Positions 1,124-7,842 of a stretch of DNA of 7,842 nucleotides are shown one piece after another. Each line of letters begins with the position of its first letter. The stretch's first letter is position 1. Source of the DNA: a virus (Duplodnaviria; Heunggongvirae; Uroviricota; Caudoviricetes); IMG/VR virus record IMGVR_UViG_2541047931_000013. One strand, 5' to 3'. The notes beneath the pieces are model-generated. The model worked only from the letters and a program-made list of their open reading frames with translations, was not told where the DNA came from and did no database searches. The translations under genes were made by a program, and so were the position numbers.

Positions 1124-1342
1124 ATGACAGCACACAAGCCAGCATCATCAGCTATCCCAACAACTGGATACATCCGTCGCTTTCGCATGCCGGAATTGCT
1201 AGGTGTTTCACTGCCTACTATTGATAGATGGGTTAAAAATGGCACTCTTCCACGCCCAGTGAAGCTAACAGATAACGTGACTGCGTTTGATGCGGTGGAA
1301 ATTAATAACTGGCTGGCAGAACGCCGAAACACATCAGCCTGA
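1124..1342 (+). CDS. alpA: AlpA-family phage transcriptional regulator / excisionase-like (winged-helix) protein
   Basis: 72-aa product with the motif IRRFRMPELLGVSLPTIDRWVKNGTLPRPVKL...DAVEINNWLAER, typical of the AlpA/Vis family. SD AGAGGT lies 10 nt upstream. Size and position are typical for island regulators. Confidence 0.8.
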   Translation: MTAHKPASSAIPTTGYIRRFRMPELLGVSLPTIDRWVKNGTLPRPVKLTDNVTAFDAVEINNWLAERRNTSA

Positions 1343-2851: not shown

Positions 2852-3401
2852 ACCTGTCTTTTATGCCGGTCGCACTGAAATCTCTGTCATTAAATTCGAT
2901 GACATTCAGGTGCGCATAGTGAGTATCAACGGCGAGCCGTGGTTTGTTGGCGCTGATGTGTGTGCCGCGCTGGAAATCAGCAATGTTACTGATGCCGTTT
3001 CAGTTCTGGATAACGATGAGGTAATGACCCTAGCTTTAACCGAGGGTCATTCCGGTAAGCGTGGTGGTGCCAGAAGCTGGAATGTTGTCTCTGAATCAGG
3101 TTTCTACAAACTGATCGCCCGCAGCCGTAAAGCTTCCACACCAGGCACATTTGCGCACCGTTTCAGTAACTGGGTATTCCGCGAGGTGATTCCTTCAATC
3201 CGCAAAACGGGGGGTTATGGTGTTCCGTTTGCCATGCTGAATGATTTCAGTAAACGTCAGGCTGCATATCAACAGGAAGCCAGCAAACGCGGTTACAGGT
3301 TACAGCAATGCAAAGAGGCAAAAGATGCACTGGAACGAGAAGAGCGGGCGCTATGGCGTAAATATCAGCCTGATTTTCTGGAGGGTGAAAGCAATGTGTA
3401 A
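2844..3401 (+). CDS. Bro-N domain protein (phage antirepressor-like)
   Basis: VIKFDDIQVRIVSINGEPWFVGADVCAALEI...FYKLIARSRKASTPGTFAHRFSNWVFREVIPSIRKTGGY is the Bro-N signature. SD GGAGGTG lies 7 nt upstream. The ATG overlaps the previous stop. Confidence 0.75.
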   Translation: MRKPVFYAGRTEISVIKFDDIQVRIVSINGEPWFVGADVCAALEISNVTDAVSVLDNDEVMTLALTEGHSGKRGGARSWNVVSESGFYKLIARSRKASTPGTFAHRFSNWVFREVIPSIRKTGGYGVPFAMLNDFSKRQAAYQQEASKRGYRLQQCKEAKDALEREERALWRKYQPDFLEGESNV

Positions 3402-4431
3402 CGATCCGAACGTTACAGAAAGAAAAAGCGCCCCGTTGCTGGATAACAGGCAAAACAAAGGCGACCGGGATAGGTCGCCAGTGGGAACAAAGGAAATCAA
3501 ACGCATCGCCAACAATGCCAGATTTGCGGCTGGTGGGCAATGTGATCAGTGTGCTGGCTTGCTGGTGGGCTATTCCTGCTCTTTAGCATCGCCATACTGC
3601 GATGTTTTCCAGGTATGCGATTCCATTTTTGTGCGCCTGTACTCTTTTAAGAACTTCTCAAGGACAAACGCACATGGCGCAAATCTTTCCTGTTCTTGTT
3701 CGCTTACCGCATTTTTGCGTTGTTTTTTCCTGGATGAGGATAATTTCTTTAATGATTTGTCAGTCATCGTAGATACCTGTAACCCTGTGCGCCACAGTTC
3801 ACCGCACCACGGCGCTGGTGATGGTTACTCCTGCTCTTTGGCCTTCCGGCGCTGTTCATATTTTAATTTGCGTCCACAGGCATCTAAGACCCATGCGGAA
3901 AAATTAGCACTAGGATTAGTTAATTTTTCTTGTTCAACACTGGCATCAATCCCATCTATAAGCTCGTGCGGGAATCGAATATTTTTCTTTGCTGATTTGT
4001 TGTTTGTGTTTCCGCTAGACATTGGTACACCTCACTTAAATGGATTTGATGGGCGCACACAATACAGCAAAAAAAGTGAGAAGTTAAGTATTGACATGTG
4101 CGCACACATGATTTTAATCTGTGCGCACAGTTTGGGTTGCATTGCTCAAATTAAGCAACGCCCCGCAGTGCTCGCAACACATGCAGGGCGTCTAACCACC
4201 AACGATAGAAAGCGTATCGAGGTAGCTATGTTAAATCATACCACACACCCGCAAGGGCGGGACTCGCACAACCTGAATAAATACATCTGGCGTTTTATCG
4301 CCCTGAGCACCGCACAACCACGCGTAATACACATCGAGGCCGCCAGCGAACAGGAAGCCCGTCAGCAATCCCCGGCTGGCTGCGTGATGGTATTTACTGC
4401 CCGCATCCGTCAGGGGGAATACTATGCGTGA
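3394..4431 (+). CDS. alternative model: long + strand ORF (345 aa), possibly a shadow of - strand genes; mutually exclusive with the - strand small ORFs and with the 4228 start
   Basis: ATG at 3394 with SD GGAGGG 8 nt upstream, overlapping the Bro-N stop (ATGTGTAA). Frame open for 345 codons. The product is about 5% Cys and F/S/L-rich in its middle part, which looks like antisense translation of K/E/A-rich coding. Confidence 0.25.
   Translation: MCNDPNVTERKSAPLLDNRQNKGDRDRSPVGTKEIKRIANNARFAAGGQCDQCAGLLVGYSCSLASPYCDVFQVCDSIFVRLYSFKNFSRTNAHGANLSCSCSLTAFLRCFFLDEDNFFNDLSVIVDTCNPVRHSSPHHGAGDGYSCSLAFRRCSYFNLRPQASKTHAEKLALGLVNFSCSTLASIPSISSCGNRIFFFADLLFVFPLDIGTPHLNGFDGRTQYSKKSEKLSIDMCAHMILICAHSLGCIAQIKQRPAVLATHAGRLTTNDRKRIEVAMLNHTTHPQGRDSHNLNKYIWRFIALSTAQPRVIHIEAASEQEARQQSPAGCVMVFTARIRQGEYYA
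3445..3479 (-). terminator. putative Rho-independent terminator for - strand transcripts
   Basis: Perfect 7-bp GC-rich stem GGCGACC (3460-3466) / GGTCGCC (3473-3479) with 6-nt loop. On the - strand it is followed by UUUGUUUUG. No T-tract on the + strand side. Confidence 0.4.
3570..3767 (-). CDS. small basic protein (65 aa), paralog B of a tandemly duplicated pair; possible DNA-binding protein
   Basis: ATG at 3767-3765 with AGGT 7 nt upstream. C-terminal AKEQE shared with the 3825-4022 product. An interrupted inverted repeat CTGTG-CGC-CACAG (3785-3797) lies just upstream. Confidence 0.35.
   Translation of the reverse strand: MTDKSLKKLSSSRKKQRKNAVSEQEQERFAPCAFVLEKFLKEYRRTKMESHTWKTSQYGDAKEQE
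3825..4022 (-). CDS. small protein (65 aa), paralog A; putative ribbon-helix-helix-like repressor divergent from the replication operon
   Basis: ATG at 4022-4020 with GAGGTG SD 5 nt upstream. KNIRFPHELIDGID...NFSAWVLDACGRKL has a strand-helix-helix layout resembling CopG/Arc-type proteins. Candidate -10 TATTGT / -35 TTAACT on the - strand at 4059-4064 / 4082-4087. Confidence 0.4.
   Translation of the reverse strand: MSSGNTNNKSAKKNIRFPHELIDGIDASVEQEKLTNPSANFSAWVLDACGRKLKYEQRRKAKEQE
4053..4130. promoter_or_regulatory. back-to-back divergent sigma70-like promoters overlapped by palindromic operator-like sites
   Basis: + strand: -35 TTGACA (4091-4096), 16-bp spacer, -10 TTTAAT (4113-4118). Perfect palindromes TGTGCGCACA (4097-4106, in the spacer) and CTGTGCGCACAG (4119-4130, over the predicted start). 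Half-site GCGCACA at 4053-4059 overlaps the predicted - strand start. Confidence 0.5.
4228..4431 (+). CDS. small protein (67 aa), first gene of the replication operon; possibly Icd-like (unverified recollection)
   Basis: ATG at 4228 with SD GAGGT 4 nt upstream. Product MLNHTTHPQGRDSHNLNKYIWRFIALSTAQPRVIHIEAASEQEARQQ... has ordinary composition. Its stop overlaps the next start. About 100 nt downstream of the predicted + promoter. Confidence 0.45.
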   Translation: MLNHTTHPQGRDSHNLNKYIWRFIALSTAQPRVIHIEAASEQEARQQSPAGCVMVFTARIRQGEYYA

Positions 4432-4683: not shown

Positions 4684-4986
4684 ATGAAGAAGATTAAATT
4701 TACTGGCTTAAATGCCAGCGGACAGACTCACCCGAAAATCAGGATCGGGGATATTTTCCGGGATAAATATGGTGACAGCGTGGTTATTAATTCCGTGTAT
4801 GAACGGCACATTACATACCGCCGCGCAGGGTACGACTATGACTGTGTGATGCCCGTTCATCAGTTCCGGCGTGATTTTTCACTGGTATGTGCAGCACCAC
4901 GCAGTAAGCCCACCAGTAAAGAGAAAGCACGGGCAAATATTCAGGTAATAAAGAACATGATTAACGCATTCAGGGGCAAGAAATGA
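4684..4986 (+). CDS. hypothetical protein (100 aa), low-GC; possibly DUF4222-like (unverified)
   Basis: ATG 2 nt after the upstream stop; weak SD GGGAA. Its stop overlaps the helicase start (ATGA). IGDIFRDKYGDSVVINSVYERHITYRRAGYDYDCVMPVHQFRRDF is vaguely familiar from small proteins next to island primase genes. Confidence 0.55.
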   Translation: MKKIKFTGLNASGQTHPKIRIGDIFRDKYGDSVVINSVYERHITYRRAGYDYDCVMPVHQFRRDFSLVCAAPRSKPTSKEKARANIQVIKNMINAFRGKK

Positions 4987-7109
4987 AACGCGCACCGAAT
5001 TTAAAGCACCAGCCGAAAGACAAAATGACGGAGGTGATTATCTTTGCGGGTAGTGATGCCTGGGCACATGCGAAAGAGTGGAGCGAATGGGCCGGAAAGC
5101 ATATTGCGGCAGATGATACACATCCAGTTATTCTTGGACCGGAACAACTGGCGAGTCTGGCAGACACGCAAATCATCGACAAAGGGCGCTATTACGTGCG
5201 CGTTTATCGTGCTGGTGAAATATCAGAGCAGCACCTTACACAGATAGCGACACTGCTTGCAGTGGCGGGTGTGAAGGAGGCGCGTTGCTACCGCAGCTTT
5301 GTTGATCAGCAGCCGGAGGACTGGACACCGCGCATGGCTGGACTGAAGGATGATGCGGAACGCGGTAACAGTCTGGTGATCAACCTTCCGGCGAAGACAA
5401 ATTTCACCGGAAATTATGATGACGAATTAAAGCCTCGTGTTGAAAGTCGCGTCGATGGTGTTTTCTGGGTAACGCCCAAAGTGGACAAGCAGTCAGGCGA
5501 AATTATCCGGCCTGAGACGTGGTTATGTTCTCCGCTTGAACTACTGGGAACAGGAACAATCGGCAAAGAGCATTACCGCGTGATGCGCTGGAAAAAACCA
5601 GCAAACCATGAGGTCATTACAATGGCGGTCCCGTGCGGAGGCATTGGTGACCGTGACGGCTGGCGGTTGCTGAAAGACCACGGCCTTAACGTGACGACCA
5701 ACGGCAAATACAGGGCTATCTTGGCTGACTGGATGCAGTTAAGCGGAAACCATGAGGAATGGCAGTTAAGCACAACAACGGGGTGGCATTTTGGTGCGTA
5801 CATCATGCCGGATGGTTCGATCATCGGTGAATCAGAGAAACCCATCCTGTTTACCGGAAAAACTGCCGCTGTTAATGGCTATTCCGTGGCGGGAACAGCG
5901 GAGGGCTGGCGCGATACCGTGGCACGGCTGGCTGGTGGTAATCCGTCCATGATGCTGGGTGTGGCGGTATCGCTATCTGCACCATTAATCGGGCTGGTGG
6001 GTGCTGACGGCTTCGGGGTTCATCTTTTTGAGCAATCATCAGCAGGTAAAACCACCACACAGAACATTGCATCAAGTTTATGGGGAGAGCCGGACGCGCA
6101 ACGGCTGACCTGGTACGGAACGGCGTTAGGTATCGCCAACGAGGCCGAAGCACATAATGACGGGCTGTTACCCCTGGATGAAATAGGCCAGGCCGGAAAC
6201 GCACGGGAGGTGTCCACGTCAGCCTATACGCTGTTTAACGGTTCCGGGAAATTACAGGGGGCGAAGGACGGCGGCAACAGGGAGATAAAACACTGGCGTA
6301 CGGTGGCAATCAGCACCGGAGAAATGGACGTTGAAACATTCCTCAAAACGGAAGGGATAAAAATTAAAGCGGGACAGCTTGTCCGTCTGCTTAACGTACC
6401 GATGGAAAAGGCCTCGCAGTTTCACGAATACAGCACCGGAAAGGCGCACGCAGACGCGTTAAAAGATGCCTGGACAGAAAATCACGGGGCGGCAGGTCGT
6501 GAGTGGGTTAAATGGCTGGCAGGCCACCAGCAGGAGGCAAAGGACGCGGTAAGGGCATGTCGCGAGCGGTGGCGCAACCTGATACCGGAGAGCTACGGCG
6601 AGCAGGTTCACCGTGTGGGGGAAAGATTCGCCGTACTGGAGGCCGCGCTTGTGCTTTCCGGTCATGTTACAGGCTGGGATGTTCAGGCGTGCCGTGATGC
6701 AGTTCAGCATAACTTTAATGCCTGGGTGAAGGAATTCGGCACGGGCAACAGGGAATTTAAACAGATGGTTGAACAGGCTGAGGCGTTTTTGTCGTCGTTC
6801 GGGTTCAGTCGATACCTTCCCTATCCAAACAGCGACGAGCGTGATTTACCGATTAAAGACCTTGCCGGATACAGAAAGGGGAGTATCAGAAACGAAGATG
6901 ACGAGTTCCGTTTTTACACGTTCCCGCATGTGTTTGAGGGTGAGATAGCACAGGGATTTAATCCGTCTCACTTTGCCCGCGCGTTGAGTGCAGCCGGAAT
7001 GCTGGAAGCGGGAGGCGACCGCCGTTACAAGAAAAAGGCGCTCGGCAGGATTGGCGGGAAGCAGCATATTTTTTACGTGCTGATGTTCCAGCCTGAAGCA
7101 GAAGATTAA
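4983..7109 (+). CDS. replication primase/helicase-like protein (P4 alpha-like / DUF927-type, SF3-type P-loop NTPase)
   Basis: 708-aa ORF at about 55-63% GC. Walker A-like FEQSSAGKTT (about 6021-6059) and Walker B-like LLPLDEIGQ (about 6160-6190). SD AGGGG lies 6 nt upstream. Overall resemblance to replication proteins of enterobacterial integrative elements. Confidence 0.85.
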   Translation: MKRAPNLKHQPKDKMTEVIIFAGSDAWAHAKEWSEWAGKHIAADDTHPVILGPEQLASLADTQIIDKGRYYVRVYRAGEISEQHLTQIATLLAVAGVKEARCYRSFVDQQPEDWTPRMAGLKDDAERGNSLVINLPAKTNFTGNYDDELKPRVESRVDGVFWVTPKVDKQSGEIIRPETWLCSPLELLGTGTIGKEHYRVMRWKKPANHEVITMAVPCGGIGDRDGWRLLKDHGLNVTTNGKYRAILADWMQLSGNHEEWQLSTTTGWHFGAYIMPDGSIIGESEKPILFTGKTAAVNGYSVAGTAEGWRDTVARLAGGNPSMMLGVAVSLSAPLIGLVGADGFGVHLFEQSSAGKTTTQNIASSLWGEPDAQRLTWYGTALGIANEAEAHNDGLLPLDEIGQAGNAREVSTSAYTLFNGSGKLQGAKDGGNREIKHWRTVAISTGEMDVETFLKTEGIKIKAGQLVRLLNVPMEKASQFHEYSTGKAHADALKDAWTENHGAAGREWVKWLAGHQQEAKDAVRACRERWRNLIPESYGEQVHRVGERFAVLEAALVLSGHVTGWDVQACRDAVQHNFNAWVKEFGTGNREFKQMVEQAEAFLSSFGFSRYLPYPNSDERDLPIKDLAGYRKGSIRNEDDEFRFYTFPHVFEGEIAQGFNPSHFARALSAAGMLEAGGDRRYKKKALGRIGGKQHIFYVLMFQPEAED

Positions 7110-7132
7110 CTTCCCTGTGTGAGGTAAAAAGT

Positions 7133-7257
7133 TGCGGGTTATGCGGGTTATCCTGTGCATAAGTTAATTAACTGAATGATTAAAAAGGAAATTAATAACC
7201 CGCACGTAACCCGCAAAACGGCAGTTATAACCCGCAAATGTGCGATTGTAACCCGCA
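7133..7257. repeat. iteron array around an AT-rich core; putative replication origin
   Basis: 9-mer TGCGGGTTA twice in tandem (7133-7141, 7142-7150). Its reverse complement TAACCCGCA four times (7196-7204, 7207-7215, 7228-7236, 7249-7257; spacings 11, 21, 21 bp). The AT-rich stretch 7151-7195 between the two sets contains the palindrome GTTAATTAAC. Confidence 0.55.
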
Positions 7258-7319
7258 AAATTTCACTGTAAGAGTGTAAACAAGCGTAACTATCACGTTA
7301 AAACCGGAGAACAAACAGC

Positions 7320-7748
7320 ATGACGGCGCAAATATCAGCTTACGGGCGGCTGGTGGCTGACCCGCAGTTAAAGACCACCAGCAAGGGCACACAAATGGCG
7401 ATGGCGAGTATGGCGGTCCCCCTTCCATGCAATCAGACAGATGACGGAACGGCGACGATGTGGTTATCCGTCCTGGCGTTTGGCAGACAGGCTGACGCAC
7501 TGGCAAAACACCACAAAGGCGAACTGGTGAGCGTGGCCGGTAACATGCAGGTGAGCCGGTGGACGGGCCAGAACGGCGAAACGAGGCAGGGATGGCAGGT
7601 TATCGCAGACAGCGTAATCAGTGCGCGAACGGCGCGACCGGGCGGCAAAAAAGGCCAGCAGGGGCAGGCTACTGATGCACTGAACAGGGCAAAGCAACAG
7701 ACAGGCCAGCACGATGATCTGAACCGCCCCGGGAATCCTGGAGACTAA
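7320..7748 (+). CDS. SSB-like (OB-fold single-stranded DNA-binding) protein, 3' end disrupted by IS insertion; native sequence ends at 7719
   Basis: AYGRLVADPQLKTTSKGTQMAMASMAV...WLSVLAFGRQADALAKHHKGELVSVAGNMQVSRWTGQNGETRQGWQV matches the SSB OB-fold pattern. SD GGAGA lies 9 nt upstream. From codon 134 the ORF reads into the IS inverted repeat and stops at 7746-7748. Confidence 0.7.
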   Translation: MTAQISAYGRLVADPQLKTTSKGTQMAMASMAVPLPCNQTDDGTATMWLSVLAFGRQADALAKHHKGELVSVAGNMQVSRWTGQNGETRQGWQVIADSVISARTARPGGKKGQQGQATDALNRAKQQTGQHDDLNRPGNPGD

Positions 7749-7842
7749 ACTTCCTGAGAAAGAGGTAAACAGGATGACTAAAAATACTCGTTTTTCCCCC
7801 GAAGTCCGTCAACGGGCAGTCCGTATGGTTCTGGAAAGTCAG
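7720..7842 (+). mobile_element. left end of an IS3-family insertion sequence (IS629/IS1203-like), continuing beyond the window
   Basis: Starts TGAACCGCCCCGGGAATCCTGGAGACTAAAC, which I recall as the IS629 left inverted repeat. orfA begins 54 bp in. Exact identity is from memory and unverified. Confidence 0.75.
7774..7842 (+). CDS. IS3-family transposase OrfA, N-terminus only (truncated by window end)
   Basis: Translation MTKNTRFSPEVRQRAVRMVLESQ is a typical IS3-family OrfA helix-turn-helix N-terminus. SD AGAGGT lies upstream at 7761-7766. Confidence 0.8.
   Translation, partial: MTKNTRFSPEVRQRAVRMVLESQ

Follow-up and report, generated by a model that had tools for sequence, protein, structure and literature searches.

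[quoted passage not shown] This is the best explanation of the data. The window, i.e. the whole stretch of 7,842 nt that was analysed, is a part of this island, which adjoins yicC, and its last 123 nt belong to the inserted element. The case for the transposition is built on the junction between ssb and the IS, on the far end of the IS with its copy of the target duplication, and on comparison with islands in which ssb is intact.

The junction between ssb and the insertion sequence

The features around the junction are the following.

7320..7719, plus strand: native part of the island ssb, comprising codons 1-133 and the first base of codon 134, and encoding the OB fold and a short linker
7320..7748, plus strand: chimeric ORF of 142 aa, SSB(1-133) followed by LNRPGNPGD, with the stop codon TAA at 7746-7748
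7717..7719, no strand: left ATC of the 3-bp target-site duplication, whose right-hand counterpart is found beyond the window, at 11609-11611 of the scaffold L003 described below
7720..7842, plus strand: first 123 nt of IS629, identical in 122/123 positions to the annotated IS629 of LC567824.1
7720..7744, plus strand: IRL, the left terminal inverted repeat of IS629, which spans about 25 bp, starts with TG and agrees with the right repeat in 23/25 positions
7720..7748, plus strand: IS-encoded tail (NRPGNPGD) and stop codon TAA of the chimeric SSB
7774..7842, plus strand: first 23 codons of IS629 orfA (MTKNTRFSPEVRQRAVRMVLESQ), co-oriented with ssb and identical to OrfA of LC567824.1

From 7710 to 7760, the plus strand of the window reads cacgatgatc/tgaaccgccccgggaatcctggagactaa, with the slash at the junction. 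In a megablast comparison of window positions 7100-7842 with 5,426 complete E. coli genomes, 92 genomes aligned with 97.7-100% identity. All these island genomes cease to align at query base 620, equivalent to window position 7719, apart from two cases that stop at 601 or 618. In turn, the segment 7720-7842 alone matches 23,338 places in 3,606 E. coli genomes (median 3 places per genome, up to 50), and these are annotated as IS3 family transposase. The breakpoint is therefore exactly 7719/7720. Upstream of it, the 7320..7719 segment is 100% identical to intact genes annotated as single-stranded DNA-binding protein in E. coli GF4 and four other genomes.

Codon 134 (CTG, Leu) straddles the junction, with only its first base, at 7719, being native. 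Past the junction, the ORF continues for 29 nt, 28 of which belong to the left inverted repeat of the IS, and its translation ends in ...QHDDLNRPGNPGD. The C-terminus of the chimeric SSB is thus QHDD-LNRPGNPGD, with Asp133 as the last native residue. A first-pass annotation of this DNA had already placed an IS left terminus at 7720 within an SSB-like ORF, and had taken the residues after about Asp133 to be IS-encoded up to a stop at 7746-7748. The first claim is confirmed by the alignment of the first base of an annotated IS629 at this position, and the second is borne out by the sequence and the ORF translation. The coordinates of the junction, the ORF and the IS are not attributable to chance.

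The first-pass annotation had also assigned the insertion to the IS3 family, as IS629-like, and here the comparison allows greater precision. The IS629 left end, TGAACCGCC..., begins at 7720. The LC567824.1 feature, annotated as "insertion sequence:IS3 family IS629" in the Stx2a-converting phage Stx2_499, has a length of 1310 bp, and a search of a phage collection aligned its left end to the window with 99.2% identity and a sole mismatch at position 7800 (C for T). The right end, which is available from L003, is identical to the same IS629 in 220/220 positions, so that the comparison covers 343 of the 1310 nt (123 on the left and 220 on the right). The left repeat TGAACCGCCCCGGGAATCCTGGAGA and the reverse complement of the right repeat (IRR, from L003), TGAACCGCCCCGGGTTTCCTGGAGA, form the imperfect TG...CA pair of the element. 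A GAGG Shine-Dalgarno sequence for IS629 orfA is present at 7762-7765, and the orfA start lies 25 nt past the chimeric ssb stop. IS3 family elements carry orfA and orfB, which are joined by a programmed -1 frameshift to yield a DDE transposase. Of this coding region, the window contains only the 23 orfA codons, and a scaffold gap of 865 N takes up the site of the frameshift along with the bulk of orfB. Judged by the sequence of its two ends, the inserted DNA is IS629, of the IS3 family, or one of the near-identical isoforms IS1203 and IS3411. These two have been named as isoforms of IS629, for which target duplications of 3-4 bp have been described (PMC3271280).

Look-ups of the exact chimeric protein returned matches on 4-6 contigs, one of which is the 542-kb scaffold KE702258.1 of GCA_000461115.1 (L003). 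Its segment L003:2682-10523 is the window, with all 7842 positions identical. The window end at 7842 coincides with the start of the 865-N gap inside IS629, and the right edge of the window is therefore an assembly break and not a biological boundary. On the 3' side of the gap, L003 resumes at IS629 position 1091 and runs up to ...GGCGGTTCA, then ATC, and then CGTACGGGGACGGGATACCGTTTTAA. The latter, 26 nt in length, is the displaced 3' end of ssb, and agrees with the intact allele in 26/26 positions. The contexts of the two ATC copies are ...GATGATC/TGAACCGCC on the left and ...GGCGGTTCA/ATC/CGTACGGGG... on the right, whereas the unoccupied site in GF4, GATGATCCGTACGGGG, has a single ATC. Thus, a scaffold identical to the window supplied both features that the first-pass annotation had recommended to look for downstream, namely the right end of the IS and the duplicated target site. 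Distal to the IS, 8,818 nt, beginning with the ProQ/FinO-like gene, are colinear with the intact GF4 island (123 mismatches, no gaps). With both IS ends, the ATC repeat and the colinear distal genes in hand, the event is best described as a simple transposition without a deletion or rearrangement boundary.

It could be asked whether the junction between ssb and the IS is merely a chimeric contig end, created in assembly at a collapsed multi-copy IS. The window does end exactly at a gap inside the IS, and IS629 is a multi-copy element. However, the same junction is found in four independent assemblies or read sets (GCA_000461115.1, GCA_002001765.1, SRR958727 and SRR29117206), and beyond the gap the right end of the IS is followed by the matching ATC and by precisely those 26 nt that ssb lacks, a succession that is not to be expected of a random mis-join. 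In view of the recurrence in independent sources, we reject an assembly chimera, which we regard as extremely improbable. There is a very slim chance that the IS end marks a rearrangement boundary instead, caused by an IS-mediated deletion, an inversion or recombination between IS629 copies, with the distal part of the island lost or moved. IS629 is a mediator of deletions in O157 genomes, and the window stops inside the IS. Nevertheless, the perfect 3-bp direct repeat that flanks the two IS ends is the mark of a simple insertion, the distal region is colinear with GF4, and the size of the gap in L003, 865 N where a complete IS629 would require 967 nt, is consistent with a single complete copy. 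On the strength of the ATC duplication and the colinear distal genes, this explanation was also rejected. The earlier concern that the insertion may sever the element from its distal genes was, in the physical sense, mistaken, since at least 8.8 kb are colinear after the IS.

That LNRPGNPGD is a natural variant of the SSB end, and its resemblance to the IS a coincidence, has a negligible probability. In its favour, NCBI holds the chimeric protein under the plain name "single-stranded DNA-binding protein" (WP_021568521.1), as an ordinary SSB without a flag. Yet the DNA from 7720 is IS629, the genomes that carry the island diverge from the window at 7719, the C-termini of the SSB family are of a different kind (see below), and the exact chimeric protein is present on 4 contigs (4-6 across look-ups), compared to 414 contigs for the intact allele. 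This possibility was discarded as well, on account of the divergence at 7719, the identity with IS629 and the family ends. Within the preferred reading of a simple transposition, the IS copy itself may be internally deleted or otherwise altered, as its positions 124-1090 fall in the assembly gap.

The transposition was probably recent, because the duplication is perfect, the ssb fragment has not decayed, and the flanks are 100% identical to intact islands. The earlier suggestion of recent mobile-element activity fits with the perfect ATC duplication and the intact displaced fragment. Among complete E. coli genomes, of which 5,426 were compared, no copy of the junction was found. Its absence there and presence in a handful of draft assemblies make the insertion usable as a lineage marker.

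The island and its replication module

In and around the window, the island has the following features.

Just upstream of the window (in L003 and in the GF4 island, L001): P4-type integrase
1-651: 216-aa protein
1124-1342, plus strand: AlpA
After AlpA in gene order: Rha, AntA and Bro-N proteins
Minus strand: small YlcI/YnfO-like genes
Between the YlcI/YnfO-like genes and the DUF927 gene in gene order: DUF4222 protein
4983-7109, plus strand: DUF927 protein (primase-helicase), 708 aa
7133 and 7142, minus strand: tandem iterons
7197, 7208, 7229 and 7250, plus strand: iterons, three at 21-nt spacing
Beyond the IS, outside the window: ProQ/FinO-like gene, followed by a PerC-like gene

Six copies of AACCCGCA (TAACCCGCA) are clustered at 7133-7257, in the 210 nt that separate the DUF927 gene from ssb; by chance, the entire window would be expected to contain 0.28. 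The minus-strand iterons are set apart from those on the plus strand by about 45 nt of AT-rich spacer. The cluster is probably the replication origin of the island. In Gram-negative phage-inducible chromosomal islands (PICIs), a primase (DUF927 proteins included), an SSB and an ori form the replication module together, and pri, the primase gene, is followed by the ori on its downstream side (PMC10111431).

The island is not uniform across genomes. Two segments of the window, 2116-2806 and 3551-4160, are without counterpart in the GF4 island, which is otherwise 99.2-99.9% identical. In place of the AntA-domain gene (2108-2449) and a gene for a 127-aa protein (2468-2851) in the window, GF4 has a GIY-YIG nuclease gene, and the region of small minus-strand genes also differs between the two. 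These differences represent mosaic exchange in the "Bro zone". A mechanical ORF of 396 aa on the plus strand (3241-4431) is probably no real gene; RefSeq instead has small minus-strand YlcI/YnfO-like genes and, in the related island, a plus-strand Icd-like gene. No Rfam family reached its gathering threshold anywhere in the window, and hence no P4-type C4/isrK immunity RNA was detected at this stringency. Farther distal, outside the window, three large genes follow one another (843, 686 and at least 918 aa; L003 13237-20429, L001 11246-18593), which are "hypothetical protein" in RefSeq with no Pfam match on record, and are possibly island cargo or a defence module.

Where the island is intact, ssb is followed at a distance of 37 nt by the start of the ProQ/FinO-like gene. 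A consensus scan found no plus-strand terminator-like site between the two genes, and no plus-strand promoter-like site upstream of the intact ssb, the scan being silent on where ssb transcription starts. The result weakly fits co-transcription of ssb with the downstream gene. The 1.3-kb insert parts ssb from the ProQ/FinO-like gene and may lower or rewire the expression of the latter. In view of the 37-nt spacing and the lack of a plus-strand terminator-like site within it, the insertion may be polar on the distal genes. Alternatively, the downstream genes could still be expressed, either by read-through or from an outward-facing promoter of the IS.

Loss of the SSB tip and its predicted consequences

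Bacterial SSBs are homotetramers that bind single-stranded DNA (ssDNA), and their C-terminal tip is contacted by partners such as the chi subunit of pol III, DnaG, PriA, RecQ and ExoI. The ORF 7320..7748 matches the Pfam SSB family PF00436 over residues 4-99 with 60.3 bits (cut-off 26). Matches to solved bacterial SSB structures are weak but significant, with a best E of 4e-10 and an E of about 3e-5 to PDB 1EQQ/1EYG (OB fold). A tblastn search of 50,697 phage records with the intact SSB found distant relatives only, with at most 32% identity and mostly in phages of Gram-positive hosts.

The uninterrupted ortholog of GF4 (WP_001580978.1) has 141 aa and ends in QHDD-PYGDGIPF. It is identical to the window protein through Asp133, and its last 8 residues, PYGDGIPF, are replaced in the window by 9 IS-encoded residues. 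The native end is typical of the family. Among the 5.8 billion proteins searched, 740 were recovered as relatives, and of the best 120 cluster representatives, 106 end in IPF (GDNIPF, GDGIPF, GDDIPF, EDEIPF and others). Another 7 have close variants (LPF, VPF, APF, ISF, LSF) of the pattern [ILVA][PS]F, which brings the total of IPF and its variants to 113/120. The remainder are one protein with DDF and 6 that are partial or visibly disrupted. A C-terminus like LNRPGNPGD was found in none of the 120 best representatives. The first-pass annotation had named intact homologs with the window's C-terminus as evidence that would speak against an insertion; neither these representatives nor the GF4 ortholog provide such a case. 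The amphipathic IPF tip is present in the SSB family and lost in the chimeric allele.

The E. coli SSB tip, DDDIPF, is needed for every partner interaction that has been examined, and C-terminal truncations of this protein fail to complement the wild type. Even the exchange of the penultimate Pro to Ser in ssb-113 causes conditional (temperature-sensitive) lethality (PMC3632105). As the sequence shows, the island ssb was entered by IS629 at an ATC that lies 26 nt short of its end, and this triplet is now present twice. The ORF is read from Asp133 into the IS inverted repeat, gains LNRPGNPGD and terminates, with the codons for the native PYGDGIPF end moved about 1.3 kb downstream and lacking a start codon. 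By analogy with the E. coli variants, the chimeric SSB, whose OB fold is kept along with most of its linker, probably still oligomerises and binds ssDNA, while the loss of the acidic tip with its terminal Ile-Pro-Phe-COOH would abolish the docking of partners, and turn the protein into a ssDNA coat without recruitment. The prediction of retained ssDNA binding and lost partner recruitment draws on E. coli SSB genetics. Going by the motif alone, the tip of the island SSB would dock the same partners as the tip of E. coli SSB. These partners may be host proteins or the DUF927 primase-helicase of the island itself. The product had earlier been described as probably altered or nonfunctional. It is altered, in that the tip has been replaced, but nonfunctional is too strong a term for a protein whose OB fold is intact and whose linker is largely preserved.

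As the chromosomal ssb is separate and unaffected, no effect on the host is expected. The cell is probably indifferent to the insertion, and any cost would fall on the replication module of the island. The occurrence in several isolates (4-6 contigs) indicates that the IS-bearing allele is at least tolerated. A step further, there is a slim chance that the tip-less SSB is not a dead gene, and that it is a tolerated or even selected variant. If so, it could interfere in a dominant-negative manner with replication and repair in the host or in a helper phage, or evade a defence system that senses SSB. A literature search for dominant-negative SSB tails returned nothing relevant. The notion of a selected variant derives from a few other ssb alleles that are independently disrupted near their 3' ends; instead of random decay, these might reflect selection that has acted repeatedly against the tip. 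In P0009, a fusion that has a PF20441 match, ...QHDDP134 is followed by 68 unrelated residues; P0127 and P0129 diverge after ...TDAL120 (residue 120); P0038 ends in ...PYGDG-NTVLSNE; and P0095 diverges after ...GGKK.

With simple transposition as the preferred explanation, neither the IS nor the type of event is new. The insertion is an ordinary gene disruption and has little general significance. The value for annotation lies in WP_021568521.1, which has been deposited as a normal SSB even though its last nine residues are IS-encoded and the docking motif is gone.

Relation to known elements and SSB variants

The inserted element shares with the IS629 of LC567824.1 the start base, the TG...CA repeats, the 23 OrfA residues and the short duplication. 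Over the compared parts, no difference in kind was found, with positions 124-1090 being unassembled in this copy.

With respect to the order and content of its genes, the island matches the description of Gram-negative PICIs (int, alpA, Bro zone, primase, ori, SSB; PMC10111431). The layout is also the unidirectional one of PICIs, as AlpA, the DUF927 protein and SSB are all encoded on the plus strand, with the iterons between the DUF927 gene and ssb. In contrast to the Gram-negative PICIs, the island has no identified capsid, packaging or redirection genes, and neither these nor phage-late genes are evident in its annotation, the distal region included. As packaging and late genes were not identified and dependence on a helper is only putative, we call the island PICI-like and do not claim membership.

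The chimeric SSB can be compared with truncated or altered forms of E. coli SSB (tip truncations, ssb-113 and SSB+Gly), with which it shares the retained OB fold and the loss of the amphipathic tip. Unlike the E. coli gene, the island ssb is an accessory gene, its product is only distantly related to the host SSB, and the linker is short (about 34 residues). In further contrast to the E. coli truncations, the tip of the island SSB has been swapped for 9 foreign residues and not merely deleted. With these differences, the chimeric allele is a natural counterpart of the SSB C-terminal truncations made in the laboratory, and it could serve to test the role of the SSB tip in the replication of a PICI-like island.
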